A stretch of DNA of 14,403 nt from UHGV virus genome UHGV-0123060. One strand, 5' to 3'. The position numbers and the translations under genes are program-made. Source of the DNA: a virus. Shown here in pieces: positions 3,531-13,546 of this stretch (its first letter is position 1; each line of letters begins with the position of its first letter). The notes beneath the pieces were generated by a model, which was given only the letters and a program-made list of their open reading frames with translations, searched no databases and was not told where the DNA came from.

Positions 3531-4094
3531 TTATTCTCCAAAAAAGGTGACTGGCGCTTCCACCAGCGATTTGATGCCGTACTCGCGCACGACCTTCCGG
3601 CGCAGGCGCACCGTCATGTCGTAGCGGCGAACCCATTGCTGGTTGATAAGCTCGGGGAAAGGGGTCAGACCGGTATAGTCGCCCAGGGATAAACCGAGCG
3701 CGTTCAGCTCAGCATTATTTTGCGGGACAGATATGCCATCGCGAAAACGGGACGCATAAGACATACCCGCCGGGCCATAGAACGACGCCATGCACTCGAA
3801 CGTTTCATGCCGCCAGAGCTGAGCGCCCTCGTCGGTCTGCCTGGTGAATGCAGGACTGTTATCAATGAGCAACCCGGTAACGCCAAACGCGCACCAGTTC
3901 GTTTCAACGGGTGGCAGTGGCGGCTGATTTTTCTGCCAGCGCGGACGAACCATTCCAGACGGCAAGCCGGAAACATTGCGCATCCACTGGCTTAGCAGCC
4001 TGTCGAGCGCTTCGTCATAATCCGGATCGCCGCTGGTGGGTGTCAGCCAGCCGCGCTCTGTGCTGGTGTTATTGCTCAACGGGAGTACCCCCAT
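3531..4094 (-). CDS. Hypothetical structural protein (tail completion/neck region), start ambiguous
   Basis: ORF track 3531..4136 begins at a GTG; first in-frame ATG is at 4094. Stop is 4 nt before the sheath ATG. Position between head and tail genes. Confidence 0.5.
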   Translation of the reverse strand: MGVLPLSNNTSTERGWLTPTSGDPDYDEALDRLLSQWMRNVSGLPSGMVRPRWQKNQPPLPPVETNWCAFGVTGLLIDNSPAFTRQTDEGAQLWRHETFECMASFYGPAGMSYASRFRDGISVPQNNAELNALGLSLGDYTGLTPFPELINQQWVRRYDMTVRLRRKVVREYGIKSLVEAPVTFFGE

Positions 4095-5799: not shown

Positions 5800-6741
5800 T
5801 CAGATACCGTCCACGTAGGACAGGGTTTCTTTGTACACTGGCTCAACCGCACCGAGCTTGCCGTAGTAAGTCACAATCTGGTACAGACCACGATACTGGA
5901 CAGGAACGCTCTGCAACGGTACCAGCGGATAGCGCACGTATTTCTTGTCGTTGGTGTAGGCGACCATACGGTCTTTACCGCCAACTCCGCGCCCTTTCAG
6001 CCATTTGACCGCTTTGATTTCCAGCGGAACGCCGTTCTGGTGGAAAGCGATAGTGTTCACGGCCAGATAGGTCAGCAGTGACTGGTTACCCGCTTCGGAA
6101 ACCTTACGGCTCGCCAGCAGTGAATACTGCTCTGGCGGAATGCGCAGATCAGAAGGCACGACGGAATAACCGGATGCTGCCCAGGCATTCGACAGAATGC
6201 TGTTCACGCTATCGAGGATCTCGTCGTTGGTGGAGTTCGCCCAGGTCTTCGGCGCGTTGTTCAGCGTCACACCGACAAGGTTTGCCAGCCCTTTCAGGCC
6301 GAGCGCATCATCGCCGATGTAAACCTGCTCGTCGTTGTCCATCTGCCATTTGAGCTGCATCCCGTCGTACTTCTGGGTATCAATCGGGCGACCTACCTGC
6401 TGAGCTGCTGCCAGCTCTACAACGGTCCAGCCCAGTTCCATGCCCCAGAGGTTCAGAGGATTGCCGTCTTTGCCGATATCAACGTTCACGCCAGCAATAG
6501 CGGTGGAGTCTTTGCCTACCCAGTTTTTACCGTTAGGATTTGCGCCAGTACCCGCAGCGCCAAAGCTGGTGTTAGTCCAGCTGGAAATGTCATCTGCGAT
6601 AGAAACGTCTTCACGCAGTTGAATGTCGCGGGTCCAGGTGTAACCCACCAGCGGCAGGTTCAGCGTCTGGTCGATTCGCTCCAGCTCCCCGATAAGAAAG
6701 GCACCAGAGCTATCAACGGTTGCCTGATCAAAAGTAATCAT
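5800..6741 (-). CDS. Major capsid protein, putative
   Basis: 313-aa ORF, ATG at 6741 with AGGAAC upstream. Largest head-module ORF after the scaffold-like gene; the strong downstream stem-loop would fit a highly expressed capsid gene. Called by position and size only. Confidence 0.55.
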   Translation of the reverse strand: MITFDQATVDSSGAFLIGELERIDQTLNLPLVGYTWTRDIQLREDVSIADDISSWTNTSFGAAGTGANPNGKNWVGKDSTAIAGVNVDIGKDGNPLNLWGMELGWTVVELAAAQQVGRPIDTQKYDGMQLKWQMDNDEQVYIGDDALGLKGLANLVGVTLNNAPKTWANSTNDEILDSVNSILSNAWAASGYSVVPSDLRIPPEQYSLLASRKVSEAGNQSLLTYLAVNTIAFHQNGVPLEIKAVKWLKGRGVGGKDRMVAYTNDKKYVRYPLVPLQSVPVQYRGLYQIVTYYGKLGAVEPVYKETLSYVDGI

Positions 6742-6752
6742 TCGTCTGTTCC

Positions 6753-7256
6753 TTAAATCTTCCAGGAGATTTCTGCATTGCCGTTAGCGTCACCGGCCCC
6801 TGTGAATTCGGCGTTGGTCAGCGCCACGTTTTTGCCACTGACGGACGTGGACATGAAGCCGCCCAGCGGCACGTCAATGGTTGAGTCGAGCGAAACAACC
6901 ACGTAGACAGGCGCGCCTTTTTTGATAGTGCTGGCATCGAAGCCAGATCCGAGGTTAACGGTCATGTAGCCACGCTTCATGGCGTCGCCCGGGAAGTTCT
7001 TATCCGTCCCCACCTGGCGAACCATGTCTGGTTGCGATGTGGTCGGATACGGACGAACGTAGATACCCTTCACCTTGTCGGCGGTGTCACCGTCCGCCAG
7101 CGGCACGAAAAAGCCGTCAGCGTCGTATTTGCCAGCCAGACCATAGGCAGCGAAGGCGTTAGCGGATTTAAGGATCACCGGTTCGACGGTTAAGTCCTGC
7201 GGGCGAGAGATAGCCCCGGCAATGCCAACAGGCATCCGGTACAGATATGCAGTCAT
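6753..7256 (-). CDS. Hypothetical head protein (decoration or accessory capsid protein candidate)
   Basis: 167-aa ORF between the scaffold-like gene and capsid gene; Gly/Ala/Val-rich beta-type composition. Function from position only. Confidence 0.45.
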   Translation of the reverse strand: MTAYLYRMPVGIAGAISRPQDLTVEPVILKSANAFAAYGLAGKYDADGFFVPLADGDTADKVKGIYVRPYPTTSQPDMVRQVGTDKNFPGDAMKRGYMTVNLGSGFDASTIKKGAPVYVVVSLDSTIDVPLGGFMSTSVSGKNVALTNAEFTGAGDANGNAEISWKI

Positions 7257-7260
7257 TGGA

Positions 7261-8493
7261 TTATCCTTTGCGGTTAGACCAGAAGTCGGCGTTTTGTTTG
7301 TTCAGGGAAGCGATGCTGGTCATGCCCATATTTGGACGTTGTGCATCGCCCGTGGTGCTGCGGGTGTTTCGCCCTTTGGCAATCTCTGACACGGCGTTAA
7401 ACGCCATATCTACCGATTGCTTGGGCAATTTGCGGATATCCGCATCACCGACAACCTGGCGAACCAGTTTTTTGTCAGCGGCGGACAGCACATCACGTTT
7501 GAACGCGGTCGGTTTCACCTTACGGCTCAGATCGATACCCGGAACGATAACTTCGGCACGATAAGCAGCGTCACCGGTAATCGTGGTTTCCTCTTCGTCG
7601 TCCTCACCGTCGCAGGTAGGGTCTTTGTTATCTTTGCCGTCAGGCTTATCGTCGTTATCGCACGTCGCATTTCCTTCCAGCTTAGCCAGCAGGGCTTTGA
7701 GCAAGGTTTTGATATCGTCCTCGCCGTCGCCGGTTGGCTCTCCGCCCATTTCCGGCTTTTTGTCCGGCAATGGTTGCTGCGGTGAAAGGTTAATGTTGAG
7801 GTTAACGCCGCTCGGCAGATCCCCTTCGTCACCCGTTACCGCCGCTGGCGCAGAGTCCAGCAGTTCGTTCATGGTGTCAGCGTCACCCGTTTTGATGGCC
7901 GTGCGCATGCGGGTCCACCAGCTTTTCTTTTGATTTGCCATTGTGTCTCTGTCTCCAATTGCACAACGATTTCCGGCTCTGCCTTTAGGGACAAGAGCCA
8001 CATGGTTTCCGGTAATATCAACCTGCTCAGCCTTACCCGGCTCAGTCTGCTTATATTCCGCGTCATAGCCACACGACACTTCGCGCAGGCCATCTTCGAT
8101 CAGCTGAATGGCGTTTTCGTCTTTGACGATAAGGTCAGCCAGCATCAAATCAGACTGATCACCAGTCCCGCGCCGAACGTTCTGAAGATGCCCGACCGCA
8201 AGCTCTTTCCAGTTCTCGGGGTTGACCAGCCGCACATTCCCGTTTTCATCTTCAGGATGCAGGATCGTGATGCTCATCCCTTCGAATGAGGCGAGCGTGG
8301 CCGGATGGAATACCTGCTCAGGAGAACGCGTGACGACTATTTCACCGAACTTATCGGGTTTCAGTTTTGGCAGGTCATCAGCACCATAGAGCTGCTTACC
8401 CGTTCGACCTATCGGCACGTCTTTGCACAGCAGCGAGCCGTCAGCCAGCTGATAGCGGGTTTCCCCCAGCCGGGTGTAGAAGAAATATTTCAT
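7261..8493 (-). CDS. Putative scaffolding/head maturation protein with acidic low-complexity central region
   Basis: 410-aa ORF, ATG at 8493. N-terminal ~190 aa globular; central D/E/K/G-rich segment with two TCD motifs (NATCDNDDKPDGKDNKDPTCDGEDDEEE); sits between the Mu-F-like gene and the capsid gene. Confidence 0.5.
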   Translation of the reverse strand: MKYFFYTRLGETRYQLADGSLLCKDVPIGRTGKQLYGADDLPKLKPDKFGEIVVTRSPEQVFHPATLASFEGMSITILHPEDENGNVRLVNPENWKELAVGHLQNVRRGTGDQSDLMLADLIVKDENAIQLIEDGLREVSCGYDAEYKQTEPGKAEQVDITGNHVALVPKGRAGNRCAIGDRDTMANQKKSWWTRMRTAIKTGDADTMNELLDSAPAAVTGDEGDLPSGVNLNINLSPQQPLPDKKPEMGGEPTGDGEDDIKTLLKALLAKLEGNATCDNDDKPDGKDNKDPTCDGEDDEEETTITGDAAYRAEVIVPGIDLSRKVKPTAFKRDVLSAADKKLVRQVVGDADIRKLPKQSVDMAFNAVSEIAKGRNTRSTTGDAQRPNMGMTSIASLNKQNADFWSNRKG

Positions 8494-8690
8494 CCATCCG
8501 CCGCCTTAGTGGATTTAATAAACTCACGCAGCAGATGCTTTATCTGACGCGCATTACCACGACCTATAAGTTGGCAGCGCTTTGCTCTATCACCAACAGA
8601 TTGATAAATAGCCTCTACGCCATTGTATTTAGCAGTGATGCGCGTAGCTTCGCTGGCCTGTTCTTTCAGGAAATAGATTGTTTTTTCCAT
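8490..8690 (-). CDS. Hypothetical small protein (66 aa), compositionally distinct; possible moron
   Basis: ATG at 8690 with AGGT upstream; stop TGA overlaps the next gene's ATG (ATGA). About 45% GC by hand count versus about 55% for neighbours. No recognisable motif. Confidence 0.5.
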   Translation of the reverse strand: MEKTIYFLKEQASEATRITAKYNGVEAIYQSVGDRAKRCQLIGRGNARQIKHLLREFIKSTKAADG

Positions 8691-8704
8691 GGGTTACCTG
8701 CAAT

Positions 8705-9478
8705 TCAGGCGAGATAGGGATGAGGTGTCGGGAATACGATTTCTTTGTAGCAACGGCAGTTAGGTAACTCCCCGGCGTGACCGGTCATGCCGTCAAGCGT
8801 TGGAGGTCGGCCCCATTCGACAAACTTCCCTTCCATCTCTCGATGAGAATGCCGGACGTCGCCATCTTCGGCTGTACGCCAGATATAGCCATTCGAGCCG
8901 ATTGACAGCGCACGCGCCTGATCCAGTGCACCGGTTGCGCGCCCAAGCTCAGTCCGGGCGATAAGGTTCGCTCGTGAGCGTGACACGTCACCGGAAGCAG
9001 CTATCTCTTTCGCGAATGGCTCAGCGCGGCCACCAGTCACAACAGCCTCGATGGCTTTGTTCTGAATGTCATACACGCGATCGGCAGCCTCAAGAGGCAG
9101 CGATTTGATGTACTTAATTTGCTCGGCGACGATGGATTTCATCACCTGGCCTACCGGGGCGCGGTCAACCATGTTACGCAGCTCTGCGCTGATGTTCCGG
9201 CTGTGCTGACGCCACTGCTTTTCATTCTGGCGCGCTATGTCTGCGGTGAAGTTCTCAGCAACCTTCGTCGCCCAGGGGGTGATGATTTCGCTGTAGCGCT
9301 CCAGCGCATCCATGATTTCGGTGACGCTATCGTTTGAACCATCGTAGCGCCCATTTACGATATCCCCGACCGCCCGCGCTATCTGCCGTAGGCTCGTTCG
9401 ATATCGGATCTCCGCCTGGCGACTCTGGCGGTTTGTCGCCAAGTTCGCCGATGCCTGGCGGCGCTTCGTCTTCGGCAT
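8705..9478 (-). CDS. Head morphogenesis protein, phage Mu F-like / SPP1 gp7 family
   Basis: C-terminal region carries the family motifs as I recall them (WRTAEDGDVRHSHREMEGK ... LPNCRCY). Located directly after the portal gene. First ATG at 9478 lies 152 nt inside the portal ORF, so the true start may be downstream. Confidence 0.8.
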   Translation of the reverse strand: MPKTKRRQASANLATNRQSRQAEIRYRTSLRQIARAVGDIVNGRYDGSNDSVTEIMDALERYSEIITPWATKVAENFTADIARQNEKQWRQHSRNISAELRNMVDRAPVGQVMKSIVAEQIKYIKSLPLEAADRVYDIQNKAIEAVVTGGRAEPFAKEIAASGDVSRSRANLIARTELGRATGALDQARALSIGSNGYIWRTAEDGDVRHSHREMEGKFVEWGRPPTLDGMTGHAGELPNCRCYKEIVFPTPHPYLA

Positions 9479-10796
9479 TCTCGATATCCTCGTCGGTAAT
9501 GGATGCTCCGATACCAGTGACGTCAGAGTTTTCGCGCAGGTCGGTCATTGCCGCCTTACGCGTCATCAATCCGTCGCCCAGCGCGGTGCTGATCGCGGTG
9601 GTGGTGTTTACGGCCACCGTTGAGCGGTCAACGTCAGACATTTGCCATAGCGGGTTAAACTCAAACGTGAAATCGTCCGGCAGCGGCTTGCCGAGTTCAG
9701 AGCGGTGCATAATGTCCAGTATCCGGCGCATCGGCAGCCGTAAGCGTCGCTCCTGCAATGAACTCACCCGGTCGTAATAGTTGGCGAGGTCAGCATCACC
9801 AGTAGAGAAGCCTTTCGGGGATTGACCGAACAGGCGTACCAGCGGGATGCCGACGGCACCGCTGATCTGCTCAGCGAACTGCGAAAGAATGTCATCCAGA
9901 CCGCTGAAGCTGTACTGGTGGGTTTCGAAGGTATCCTTGGCATCCATTAGCGTCATGCCTTCATTGCTCTGAAACTGGCGAATCAGATCAATGTTTTTCA
10001 GCAGCGCCTCGAATGCCGGGCCTCCCAGCGCAATAAGCTCACGAAGTTTTTCCACCTTGTAGGTCCGCAGATGCGCTTTGTAGACCAGCTGCGCCGCGCC
10101 GACAGTGGCGCTGTCGAACGCAGTAAGCCGATCCCAGATACGCTCTACAACCGACATTCCCCATTCGTTTTCGGTCATCTTCTGCTGGAATGGCAGCGTG
10201 ACGCCATCGAAGCGAATCAGGCGGCTGTGATGGATGCGCCAAGACGGGATGCCCGTAGCAGTGGTCACCACGTCGTAAAACTCAGGTTTGCCGAGATCCG
10301 GCCCCATCTCTTTAATGCGGCGGGTCAGCACCGGATTAATCATCCAGCGGTCGAGCGGGAGAATTCCCTTAAACTTGCCTTCTCCAATGGTTTCGAGCCG
10401 CAGCGGGGTCATTGGTGCCTGCCCCTCAATCATGATGAAGCCAACCGCGCCGCCGTAGAGACGCGACCATTTCAGCACGTCGTTCAGCGCATCCCAGATC
10501 TGCAACTCATCCAGCTGCGCTTCCAGGGTGCCACGGTCTTTGGCGTCAATCTCCGAAGTGATGCGAATGCCTTTCCGGGTCATATCGTCCGGGATAGCGT
10601 CGACCGCTTCGCCGATAACCCACGATCCGCGATATGACCATTCCACCAGCATGCGGTTGCGGCTGGTGAAGTTCGCCCGGTAGGTCGATGCTGAGTGCTG
10701 GTTAGGCGTCTGCATCCCCACGCGGGCGACAAAGTTCTCATAGCCATCAGCGGTGGCCTGCGCCGTTCGCTGAGAGGCTTGCTTGTTTCGTGCCAT
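9327..10796 (-). CDS. Portal protein, putative
   Basis: 489-aa ORF whose ATG (10796-10794) overlaps the terminase stop (TGATG). Size and position between large terminase and Mu-F-like gene; acidic Pro/Gly-rich disordered C-terminal tail. Confidence 0.7.
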   Translation of the reverse strand: MARNKQASQRTAQATADGYENFVARVGMQTPNQHSASTYRANFTSRNRMLVEWSYRGSWVIGEAVDAIPDDMTRKGIRITSEIDAKDRGTLEAQLDELQIWDALNDVLKWSRLYGGAVGFIMIEGQAPMTPLRLETIGEGKFKGILPLDRWMINPVLTRRIKEMGPDLGKPEFYDVVTTATGIPSWRIHHSRLIRFDGVTLPFQQKMTENEWGMSVVERIWDRLTAFDSATVGAAQLVYKAHLRTYKVEKLRELIALGGPAFEALLKNIDLIRQFQSNEGMTLMDAKDTFETHQYSFSGLDDILSQFAEQISGAVGIPLVRLFGQSPKGFSTGDADLANYYDRVSSLQERRLRLPMRRILDIMHRSELGKPLPDDFTFEFNPLWQMSDVDRSTVAVNTTTAISTALGDGLMTRKAAMTDLRENSDVTGIGASITDEDIENAEDEAPPGIGELGDKPPESPGGDPISNEPTADSAGGRGYRKWALRWFKR

Positions 10797-12418
10797 CAGG
10801 CCTGTCTCCCTAGCAGCTCCCAGATGTTCAGGGCTGAATTCATTGGCGCGTAGCTGATCATCACCGAGTCGGCGAGGTTCGGCGACTTGGTGCCGTCAGG
10901 CTGTTTATCAACAACGATTTTCCCCACGCCGTTAATGGAGTAGGTCGGCTGCGACAGCTCGATGATGAGTTTGTCTTTGTTCGCCATAGTGCCACTGATT
11001 GAGATGATTTCGTCCGGGTTGTAAGCCATCTTTTCAACCACGGCACGATAGGTGTTCTGGAAAAGCTTGCGTAACCGCCACCAGCTCTGGGCCTTGGCGT
11101 TAGCGAAAAAGTCCTTATTCAGGCGGGCGGCCTGTCCGTTGTCGCCGCGCACCGCTTCATCGTCCGGATCAAACACCGCGCCGCTACCGCGAAACGGTGT
11201 GGCGAGTATTGACGGTCGGCGCGCAGCGTTGCGCAGTTCGTTGATGGCGCGCGCATCGCCGCGAACGCCAGCGCCCAGGCCGTCCTCGTCGAAGCGAAAC
11301 TCTTCGAGGTTGTCCTGTTCGCAAAAGCCGAAGACCTTCTCAACAGATTGGTAAATGTCGCTGCCCACGCCGGACCATTCCCGCACGTTCTCCAGGAGGA
11401 AACCGTGACGGGTCGAAAAGGCATTTTTGTCCCGGCCTTCGTCGGCGACGTCCATCGCGCCCAGTCGCTTGCCCGTTGGCTGAATACCAAGTTTGATATG
11501 CGCGTCGACGGCAGCCTGTACCCAGTCGGACGGGATCAGGACGCCTTCCGCAGATGCGCTGTAGTTCAGGTCAAGTTCCTGCGCCACCACCACCGGATTG
11601 TCGATTTTCTCGCACTCCCTGCGATACCACTCTTCATCCTTGCGCGGGTCATCTCGCCAGTGGAACGTGAATACTGGTATCTTTCCGCCGTGGCGCTTCT
11701 GCGCGAACGGGTTCGCCATGCCATTAACCGAGCTCAGGTCAATACGGCAACGGGTGGTTTGCGACAGCGCCGCGTCAATCAGCAGAGGACGCTGGAGGAA
11801 TGCAGCCTCATCCACCAGGTAGAGGGTGGTACGGTCACCACGACCGATATTGTCGCCAGCCTCGCCTTTGATGACCGCGCCAGTATCGGGAAACTCAACG
11901 CGCATGTATGGCGCGTGCTTCTTCTCGTCCCACGAACCGCGAAACTCGACGGGCAGCGTTTCCACGAACTTGCGCGCCTTCCAGAACAGCGCCTTCGGGT
12001 CTCCGGTGCTGTCGACGTATTCCTCTTTACGGGAGCCGAAGCCGATGACCATTTCTTTGTTGAAGAGGCAGAGCGAACAGGCCAGCCCGATCGCCGTCCA
12101 GCTGAGCCCCATTTCGCGGCTCTTTTCGGTGATGCCGTTCTCCAGTCGTTCGCGCCGCTCCATGATCCAGTGAATCCACTCTTCCTGTTTCGGGAACAGC
12201 AGAAAAGGGATGGTGACCGGCAGGCCATAATCGATGTTACGCGGGTCAGTAGTCATCCCCCAGTCGATGATGAACTGTGCCGGGTTGGTGCGGTAAAACT
12301 GCTTTAGCGCTGGCAGCATTTCAGGGTTCTGGCGAATGCGCTGTAAGCGCTCCATCCGCCATTCAAAAACCATCTGGTAATCAGGGTTTCTGAAATCGAA
12401 TTCAAACGGAAGAGGCAT
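10796..12418 (-). CDS. Terminase large subunit
   Basis: About 541 aa; P-loop-like [12 protein letters not shown] and Walker-B-like [11 protein letters not shown] in the N-terminal ATPase part, acidic nuclease-type C-terminal half. ORF track start 12424 is a GTG overlapping the upstream stop; ATG at 12418 preceded by GGGTGA is the more likely start. Confidence 0.85.
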
Positions 12419-12420
12419 GA

Positions 12421-12894
12421 TCACCCCATCATCTTGCGGTAAATCTCTGCGGCCTGATCTGCGGTGAGGTTGGTCGTCTCGGTCTTGATCGGGCCGCCAT
12501 CCTTGCCAGTGCTCTCAACCTTCAGCTTATTGGTGTATGCATCGCCAACCTCTTTCGCGGCCTGCTCAATGAGCTGCGCCGTCAGGGAGAAGTTTTTCAT
12601 CCCCTCGGTTTTGGTTGCCATACGGTCAAGCACGCGGAGGCGATAGGATTTGTTCGCAATCGGAATGTCGCTGGTTTCGGTCAGGAATCGGTCGCGCGTC
12701 GCGTGGAACATCTCGATCCATTTTTTGGCGAGCGTCTTACCGCTGGCCTTCGTGGGGTCGTGAGATTCAGCCTGCTGGCGGGTGATCTTGATCCCGAATT
12801 CTTTTTGGACAGCCTCGACCACCTGCGATGGCGTGTCATAGCACGCAAGCGACTGAATGATGAAGGCTTTCACATCAGGTTTTAATGCAGCCAT
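12421..12894 (-). CDS. Terminase small subunit, putative
   Basis: 157-aa ORF immediately upstream of and coupled to the large terminase; SD GGATGGTGA before the ATG at 12894. Called by position and size. Confidence 0.55.
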
Positions 12895-12925
12895 AAATCA
12901 CCATCCGTCTTATACAGTCCAGTAT

Positions 12926-13546
12926 TTAAGCCAGTCGCAGCATGCACGTCCCGCACGCTCTGGCAATATCGAGATGAGCAACCTCCGCTGGCTGATTCGC
13001 CGCATCAATCATTTCCTGCACGTCCCGGCTTGCACCGTAACGGCGAACCACGCCCACAAACTCTTCCACGTCATGACCGCGCAGCTTCAGCTTTGGCTGC
13101 CCTTCCTGCGTGAACTTCGGCGCGCCAAATTCATCTGTCGCCTGGCAGATGTGATAAAGCTCGTGCTCTATCAGCGCGCAGAATTCCAGATCGGAACATT
13201 GCGAGCAGTAATCGGCGGCCAGCGTGATGATGAACTGCGGCACCCTGCCGAACCACTCATACATCTGCTGCTCCATCCGCGCTTTCTGCCAGCCTCCAGC
13301 CCGCATTGCCACTTCTTCCGCCTGCCCCAGCACGGAACGCCCTTTCTTCTCGAAAGCGTTCGACGCCCAGAGAAAGCACAGATCCGCTTCAAGCAAATGC
13401 TGGTGATCAGGGTTGTAGAGGTCACCCTCATCGCTCAGGATGTGCTGATTCAGCCACTCGCCAACGTCATTAGCGGGCATAATGCTGATGTACGGCTTCG
13501 GGTCAGGTGGCATCGTAAAATGCGCTGGTGGGTGTGGTCTGTTCAT
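12926..13546 (-). CDS. Hypothetical Cys/His-rich protein with HExxH motif (candidate zinc metalloprotein/metallopeptidase)
   Basis: 206-aa ORF, ATG at 13546. Contains YCSQCSDLEFCALIEHELYHICQ (CxxC, C, HExxH, C) plus a C-terminal ACGTC; Pro-rich N-terminus. Sits between the lysis cassette and terminase genes. Confidence 0.6.
   Translation of the reverse strand: MNRPHPPAHFTMPPDPKPYISIMPANDVGEWLNQHILSDEGDLYNPDHQHLLEADLCFLWASNAFEKKGRSVLGQAEEVAMRAGGWQKARMEQQMYEWFGRVPQFIITLAADYCSQCSDLEFCALIEHELYHICQATDEFGAPKFTQEGQPKLKLRGHDVEEFVGVVRRYGASRDVQEMIDAANQPAEVAHLDIARACGTCMLRLA

Follow-up and report, generated by a model that had tools for sequence, protein, structure and literature searches.

Lambdoid morons are extra genes that lie between conserved genes and carry their own promoter and terminator, and the internal and prohead-core proteins of phage T4 (IPI-III, gp67 and gp68) are small, basic, dispensable and variable proteins that are made together with the scaffold core. 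In the Mu-like Pseudomonas phages JBD30, D3112 and their relatives, the anti-CRISPR region has Mu gene G on one side and the protease/scaffold gene on the other (PMC3993853). In the Pseudomonas phage Pa193, the counterpart of the DUF2213 protein is a putative scaffold placed beneath the five-fold vertices of the capsid (PMC11456595). Here, orf66, a small open reading frame directly upstream of a DUF2213 gene, was analyzed in the window, which denotes the whole 14,403-nt stretch of the virus genome UHGV-0123060.

As shown in Table 1, the genes in this part of the window all lie on the minus strand and form the packaging and head operon of a phage. Phages that the prophage resembles include Salmonella phage SEN34 (Brunovirus), Citrobacter phage Omnitron and Hafnia phage yong1. 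Publications on SEN34 and Brunovirus contain nothing on the slot that separates the MuF-like gene from the scaffold gene.

Table 1. Features of the orf66 locus and of the surrounding packaging and head genes, in window coordinates.
Feature	Position	Strand	Remarks
Large terminase	10796-12424	minus	
DUF1073-type portal	9327-10796	minus	
Mu F-like head-morphogenesis protein	8705-9313	minus	upstream of orf66; 202-aa form annotated in relatives
Spacer ATTGCAGGTAACCC	8691..8704	minus	14 nt, 3' of the MuF-like stop; bears the AGGT Shine-Dalgarno sequence
orf66	8490..8690	minus	ATG start, 66 aa; basic, pI 9.84; unnamed GRGN-RQ-K family
GRGNARQIK	8538..8564	minus	codons 43-51 of orf66; from alignments and AlphaFold2 models
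197 nt missing in ORF-less relatives	8494..8690	minus	precise indel at the scaffold start codon
Approximate recombination tract	8400..8800	minus	substitutions relative to ORF-less relatives concentrated on both sides of the insert
ATGA overlap	8490..8493	minus	orf66 TGA (8492-8490) on DUF2213 ATG (8493-8491)
DUF2213/Pa193_gp24-type protein, putative scaffold	7261-8493	minus	downstream of orf66; 410 aa
Cement-like virion protein	6753-7256	minus	
Major head protein	5800-6741	minus	

The original prediction had labeled the two neighbors of orf66 as head-morphogenesis and scaffold genes, and both labels are acceptable, the former as Mu F-like and the latter as DUF2213/Pa193 gp24. The mechanical open reading frame of the MuF-like gene extends to 9478. 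The downstream gene matches PF09979 in Pfam with an E-value of 4.9e-42, where the current Pfam name of DUF2213 is Pa193_gp24; this likeness to Pa193 gp24 is a feature of the neighboring gene and not of orf66. The PHROGs that are related to the N-terminal part of the DUF2213 gene carry the label head maturation protease, and scaffolding may therefore be only part of its role. The DUF2213 protein is acidic, with a pI of 4.98, a net charge of −14 and a strongly acidic center.

No ORF separates orf66 from its neighbors. The gap upstream is 14 nt and the genes downstream overlap by 4 nt, and the predicted ATGA overlap of the orf66 stop with the downstream start is present. A consensus-based scan found no promoter-like sites in the region 7000-13000 and no terminator-like sites flanking orf66, the nearest being located at 9446-9463 and beyond. 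From the ATGA and the lack of promoter-like sites in this region, we reasonably infer that orf66 would be co-expressed with the late genes, its product being made from the late head mRNA at the pace of the abundant scaffold protein.

The locus resembles the Mu-like anti-CRISPR region in that it is a fixed slot between conserved head genes, immediately upstream of a protease/scaffold gene, in which close relatives hold different unrelated small ORFs. Unlike that region, orf66 has neither a promoter of its own nor an adjacent aca HTH gene, its family is confined to one head-module type, and it has no annotated relative in sequence or fold; the resemblance is one of position only. As in lambdoid morons, orf66 is found at a precise junction, is absent in close relatives and deviates in composition. 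In contrast to them, it has no promoter or terminator according to the consensus scan, and it appears to be translationally coupled into the late operon. With the T4 internal proteins, orf66 shares its small size, basic character, dispensability and location among head genes; it has no homology to them, and they serve by analogy as the functional model favored here.

The GC content of orf66 is 0.448, compared with 0.575 in the MuF-like flank, 0.541 in the DUF2213 flank, 0.556 in the whole window and 0.54-0.58 in 15 neighboring genes. Segments of 201 nt with a GC content as low as that of orf66 account for 0.29% of all such segments, and the lowest of them all across the 14.4 kb begins at 8505, within orf66. 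The GC content at third codon positions (GC3) is 0.388 in orf66 and 0.54-0.72 in the 15 other genes, in which no in-frame segment of 67 codons (mean GC3 0.663, sd 0.073) is as low. GC1 and GC2 are normal, and the deficit lies at synonymous third-codon sites. The profile is thus not uniform, with orf66 as an outlier in GC3, and the AT-rich reading frame that the original prediction placed between the head-morphogenesis and scaffold genes is borne out by the windowed GC and codon-usage calculation proposed with it. A low GC3 relative to the neighbors is seen again in most, though not all, homologous loci.

The 66-aa translation given previously matches exactly. The product, of 7.4 kDa, has a net charge of +6, which is the sum of +7 in residues 35-66 and −1 in residues 1-34, in agreement with the basic C-terminus noted from the sequence. 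An identical protein of E. coli EC2001 is annotated as WP_049040992.1, "hypothetical protein" (RefSeq/PGAP), and WP_049040992 has no mention in the literature; a Tn-seq study in which DUF2213 is named gave no useful information. The identities of orf66 homologues span 76% down to about 20%. Within subfamilies, dN/dS is 0.07-0.15, where pN is far below pS and the synonymous sites are near saturation. Judging from this conservation, orf66 is a genuine protein-coding gene under selection.

A spacer of 14 nt (…GCAGGTAAAAC) separates the MuF-like stop from the DUF2213 ATG in SEN34, Omnitron, yong1 and E. coli phage 606R2. At the junction in the window, the same 14 nt (…GCAGGTAACCC) precede the ATG of orf66, and the DUF2213 ATG follows 197 nt later. 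The AGGT Shine-Dalgarno sequence in this spacer, which serves the scaffold gene directly in the ORF-less relatives, serves orf66 here, so that the insert took over the ribosome-binding site of the scaffold gene.

In IMG/VR, the 80 loci whose DUF2213 genes are the most similar (91-99% identity) comprise 6 with the identical orf66 and 74 with the tight junction. The flank is matched by 290 of 5,426 complete E. coli genomes, 2 of which have orf66 and 288 do not, and among species-representative genomes with a DUF2213 homologue, a family member occurs in 4 of 65. Many loci that lack orf66 share 95-99% identity with the window in both the MuF-like gene and the scaffold gene. The scaffolds of phages with and without the ORF are 98-99% identical, which indicates that the scaffold needs no adaptation to orf66. 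The presence/absence comparison among relatives thus shows that orf66 is not universally conserved at this slot (6/80 in IMG/VR and 2/290 in E. coli), and on these counts it is optional, dispensable cargo and not a core head gene.

Relative to the window, loci that bear the ORF have an identity of ~100% from roughly 8500 to 9000 and of 0.88-0.91 downstream thereof. In the loci without the ORF, the 100-nt bins that touch the insert are less similar, with identities of 0.84 and 0.88. The closest relatives of orf66 (61-72% identity) adjoin scaffold genes that are only 46-55% identical to that of the window. Among the ORF-bearing phages, locus L093 has the scaffold most similar to that of the window (85%), yet its ORF is only 31% identical. 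The phylogenies of orf66 and the scaffold are therefore discordant in this lineage. Across the family, the identity of the ORF co-varies with that of the scaffold (Mantel r = 0.72, p = 0.001), which indicates that the family is an old resident of the head module with occasional lateral exchange.

The separate acquisition of orf66, which had been suggested from its composition, is supported by the atypical GC3, the precise 197-nt indel, the dips in flank identity and the discordant phylogeny. These observations fit a model in which homologous recombination within the flanking sequences brought in orf66 from a more distant phage with the same type of module. Judged by the same comparisons, the donor is not alien; it is another phage of this head-module type, in which the family has long resided. 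The insertion is fairly ordinary phage mosaicism, since optional cargo at a mosaic junction is already well known.

The slot itself was surveyed in 65 species-level loci by the length of the interval that separates the MuF-like stop codon from the start codon of DUF2213, which ranges from 2 nt to 2.9 kb. The distance is 17 nt or less in 14 loci, 30-70 nt in 14, 139-184 nt in 5, 253-303 nt in 16, 386-512 nt in 8, 633-855 nt in 5 and 2.9 kb in 1; two loci (L156 and L158) are not classifiable. The slot may hold a conserved spacer of about 262 nt that is non-coding, a 47-aa hydrophobic peptide, HNH endonucleases, an IS66 element and at least eight unrelated small ORFs, only one of which matches a PHROG, itself of unknown function. 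The small slot ORFs of other loci have no match in Pfam, HTH domains included, and Rfam finds nothing in the conserved spacer or in an ORF-less insert of 843 nt. In IMG/VR loci that carry a family gene, up to 935 nt of cargo separates MuF from this gene; a membrane protein of 170 aa and HNH endonucleases 202-263 aa in length are encoded there. As far as these surveys show, the MuF-scaffold junction is a cargo hotspot in Enterobacterales prophages.

The product of orf66 belongs to an unnamed family of about 130 clusters at 90% identity, with lengths of 54-70 aa, in which all members with an organism name come from Enterobacterales. In the profile searches, E-values reach 1e-35. All members are basic, with a pI of 9.6-11.7 in 62 of 62 sequences (alignments A3 and A5). 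The original prediction had recognized no motif in the product, which holds for the public libraries; it does not hold within the family, which has an invariant motif of its own, GRGN[AV]RQ[IV]K. In the general form GRGN[VA]RQxK, which reads GRGNARQIK at residues 43-51 of the window protein, G43, G45, R48 and K51 are invariant, and R44, N46, V/A47 and Q49 are nearly invariant.

No curated profile in PHROGs or PADLOC matches orf66; the best match in Pfam has an E-value of 0.14, not meeting its cutoff, and the best matches in NCBIfam (E 0.17) and among the PDB sequences (E 1.3) are not significant. The homology search thus returned the unnamed family and matched no known structural function. A search of 1.84 billion representatives yielded about two dozen short representatives of the family and no true multidomain member. 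Matches of the family profile in several stretches of proteins of 500-2000 aa are spurious; the one inspected, P0057, is a TPR-type repeat protein, the repeat of which, 'YNNLSxIYxxLGD', mimics 'YNGISAIYQRVGD'. No domain fusion is real as a clue to function. A further protein, P0150, looks like the neighboring head-fibre-like gene fused to the C-terminal part of the family. The family is undescribed, and its members are already annotated as hypothetical.

AlphaFold2 predicts an antiparallel meander of four strands and, C-terminal to it, an amphipathic helix; the motif lies where strand 4 passes into this helix. This topology is common to two independent models, those of the window protein (pLDDT 79.6) and of a member about 39% identical to it (pLDDT 89.7). 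Fold searches gave generic or uncharacterized matches only, and a resemblance to CsrA and Sso7d was rejected by hhalign. The glycine-rich turn of GRGNARQIK and the first turns of the helix are presumed to be the functional surface. A conserved turn of this kind, continuing into a helix that displays Arg and Lys residues, suggests that the surface may bind an acidic partner or one that carries phosphate. Many members of the family have a hydrophobic-hydrophobic-E-S sequence near residues 6-9, where the subfamily of the window has IYFLK; a T4-like capsid-targeting signal, which was also considered, appears not to be conserved in this subfamily. As the N-terminus is part of predicted strand 1, no T4-type targeting or cleavage signal is evident in orf66.

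The genomic contexts of the family were obtained by a back-translated motif scan of IMG/VR, which gave 96 loci with a family ORF. In all 58 loci with a visible downstream DUF2213-like gene, the family ORF ends between −3 and +16 nt from the scaffold start, and this abutment persists across scaffolds as divergent as 13-20% identity. Some subfamilies have no overlap with the scaffold start; they have a gap of 9-13 nt and a ribosome-binding site of their own. In about 12 loci, the family gene lies after the lysis genes and upstream of the terminase genes (small terminase), with annotated examples in Providencia, Morganella, Pantoea and Citrobacter, and in the ES2 type it lies between the large terminase and portal genes. 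Since it is also found in these two other slots, the family is not strictly tied to the scaffold gene. All family contexts examined share the module of the DUF1073 portal, MuF-like and DUF2213-like genes.

The reading that we favor, with a rough probability of 0.5, is that orf66 encodes an optional, laterally exchanged factor that is tied to the procapsid, to the acidic scaffold or to the packaged DNA in the manner of an internal protein. In this lineage, recombination with a more distant phage of this module type appears to have placed orf66 exactly at the scaffold start codon, where it took over the ribosome-binding site of the scaffold and overlaps the scaffold start with its stop. According to the favored model, the product would be made late, alongside the abundant scaffold protein, and, as a small basic protein, it may bind its partner through the conserved turn-helix surface. 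It would associate with the procapsid, scaffold or packaged DNA and confer a conditional advantage, while assembly could proceed without it.

This accessory role is favored because the family is limited to one head-module type, because it persistently abuts the scaffold gene and appears coupled to an abundant protein, and because a basic product faces a scaffold with a pI of 4.98, which is a complementary charge. Several observations count against it: no sequence or structural homologue points to any activity, the family has two further slots besides that at the scaffold, scaffolds with and without the ORF are 98-99% identical, and no capsid-targeting or cleavage signal is evident. In addition, the slot is full of unrelated cargo, as expected of a neutral landing site for conflict genes.

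The product of orf66 may instead be a free cytoplasmic inhibitor for counter-defense or inter-phage competition, e.g., an anti-CRISPR, whose position merely reflects a permissive hotspot. We consider this possible, yet rather doubtful. The gene is distributed patchily among near-identical phages, it shows lateral exchange and an atypical GC3, and it lies in a hypervariable slot with many unrelated small ORFs; moreover, the family occurs in at least three different slots, the position is analogous to that of the Mu-like anti-CRISPR region (PMC3993853), and L093, a related locus, has an Acb2/Tad1-like gene in its late region, all of which would be consistent with an inhibitor. However, without a promoter of its own, orf66 would be synthesized late, which is poor timing for most inhibitors, and no HTH (aca-like) gene is found nearby. 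The family is limited to a single head-module type, whereas known anti-defense families cross phage types; the product is basic, whereas many DNA-mimic inhibitors are acidic; and it has no match in PHROGs or Pfam.

A related and somewhat less probable proposal, which we regard as unlikely, is that the slot of these Enterobacterales myo-type prophages is a counter-defense island, the counterpart of the Mu-like anti-CRISPR locus, and that the GRGN-RQ-K proteins are a new class of late, abundant and possibly packaged and injected inhibitors of a host immune system. If this were true, the other ORFs of the slot would be further anti-defense candidates. An internal-protein-like model, in which the product is possibly packaged, would reconcile the accessory-factor and conflict-gene readings.

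Expression from the prophage for the benefit of the host, i.e., a role as a lysogenic-conversion moron, is very improbable. As an extra gene of deviant GC content that is flanked by conserved genes and carried by only some relatives, orf66 has the outward form of a moron. However, it is part of the late operon, with which it shares its strand, it begins 14 nt past the upstream stop and overlaps the downstream start, and there is neither a promoter-like site in 7000-13000 nor a flanking terminator-like site.

We assign a similarly small chance to the view that the peptide is unimportant and that the insert is a translational spacer or leader, which would tune scaffold synthesis through coupling. 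The insertion does distance the strong AGGT ribosome-binding site from the scaffold gene and leaves ATGA in its place, and in nearly all family members no more than 16 nt lie between the end of the ORF and the start of the next gene. Against this view, the protein is under strong purifying selection and has an invariant motif and a confidently predicted fold, and some subfamilies have their own ribosome-binding site and do not overlap the scaffold gene.

That orf66 is an essential core component of head assembly, as its location within the head-gene block and its coupling to the scaffold gene might imply, is effectively refuted by the presence/absence data, because it is absent in the viable isolates SEN34, Omnitron and yong1, the flanking DNA of which is 87-96% identical, and in more than 90% of related prophages. 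Finally, a chance ORF that is not a gene, an idea to which its shortness and the 118 ORFs of at least 40 aa in the window lend themselves, is already refuted by the conservation of the protein down to about 20-30% identity despite saturated synonymous sites; orf66 also occupies the sole gap on the coding strand and is annotated by PGAP.

Taken alone, orf66 is one more hypothetical small phage gene; together with its relatives, it defines a coherent family, absent from the libraries, that is under strong purifying selection and combines an invariant motif with a confidently predicted fold. This GRGN-RQ-K family is tied to one widespread type of head module. Anti-CRISPRs and other conflict genes were first found in comparable hotspots, and the slot therefore offers a small set of candidates that can be tested. 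Should the product of orf66 instead turn out to be an accessory factor of the procapsid, it would provide a tractable case of a head component that is optional.

As shown in the table, the slot between the MuF-like gene and the DUF2213 scaffold gene is variously occupied among the relatives of this phage. In many related prophages, the junction contains a conserved non-coding spacer of approximately 262 nt, which is absent from the window and is accompanied by the small ORF in some prophages and not in others. Invariant boxes (AAATGTT…AAAATGTTGT and TTATGTTAAATA) lie within the spacer, and its 3′ end is formed by a 6-bp GC-rich hairpin followed by a T-run in 15/15 sequences, directly before the ribosome-binding site. 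The spacer could be a cassette of promoter and terminator, or it could encode a small RNA; the comparison with Rfam gave no match.

The slot of several phages holds free-standing HNH endonuclease genes encoding 155–263 aa, and homing-type gene conversion arising from these endonucleases could have helped the spread of neighboring cargo, such as the 66-codon ORF of the window (orf66). A Pantoea stewartii prophage carries an IS66-family insertion of approximately 2.9 kb at this position, with three transposase-like ORFs, recognized by inspection of the sequence only.

Other cargo was also observed. Xenorhabdus prophages carry a gene for a hydrophobic, tryptophan-rich peptide of 47 aa, the end of which overlaps the start of the DUF2213 gene as ATGA, like orf66. 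On one IMG/VR contig, the ORF located between the MuF gene and the ORF of the GRGN-RQ-K family, to which orf66 belongs, encodes a 170-aa protein with a transmembrane segment at its N-terminus. The slot of one E. coli prophage (SCPM-O-B-8794) has an insert of 843 nt, in which no sizeable ORF was found on the coding strand and for which Rfam gave no match.

In one metagenomic protein, P0150, a head-fibre-like segment (PF11133) at the N-terminus is fused with the C-terminal half of a GRGN-RQ-K family protein, which probably reflects a deletion that merged two neighboring small genes upstream of the terminase.

Features of the slot and the late region in the window and in related loci (L numbers)
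Feature	Locus	Position	Remark
Spacer, ~262 nt	L093; L008; L009	5740-6000; 5737-6000; 5740-6000	
Spacer alone	L121, L129, L136, L138, L140, L145, L147, L155, L159	~3740-4000	
HNH endonuclease ORF	L130	3295-3762	phrog_374 match
HNH endonuclease genes	L169, L186, L190, L196, L209, L242	upstream of family ORF	sequence recognition only
IS66-family element	L105	1054-4001	
47-aa peptide gene	L107; L110	3861-4004; 3819-4004	
170-aa ORF	L184	upstream of 7451	
843-nt insert	L097	3158-4001	
PF11133/family fusion	P0150; L165	–; 343-570	P0150, 88 aa
Acb2/Tad1-hairpin-type gene	L093	848-1132	
MuF-like ORF, mechanical	window	8705-9478 (-)	257 aa
157-aa ORF	window	12421-12894 (-)	phrog_546, unknown function
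206-aa ORF	window	12926-13546 (-)	phrog_513 match, labeled 'transposase'

In the window, the mechanically called MuF-like ORF shares 152 nt with the portal gene. The annotation in relatives gives a protein of 202 aa with its start at 9313, and this shorter form probably has the true start. The 206-aa ORF is located before the terminase genes, where the small terminase subunit is annotated in relatives, and the 157-aa ORF overlaps the start of the large terminase gene by 4 nt; both are candidates for the small terminase.

In a Serratia prophage of the same group, a gene for an Acb2/Tad1-hairpin-type protein, which resembles anti-CBASS or anti-Thoeris sponges, lies directly upstream of the small terminase gene. 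Therefore, the late-region slots of these phages can carry counter-defence genes.
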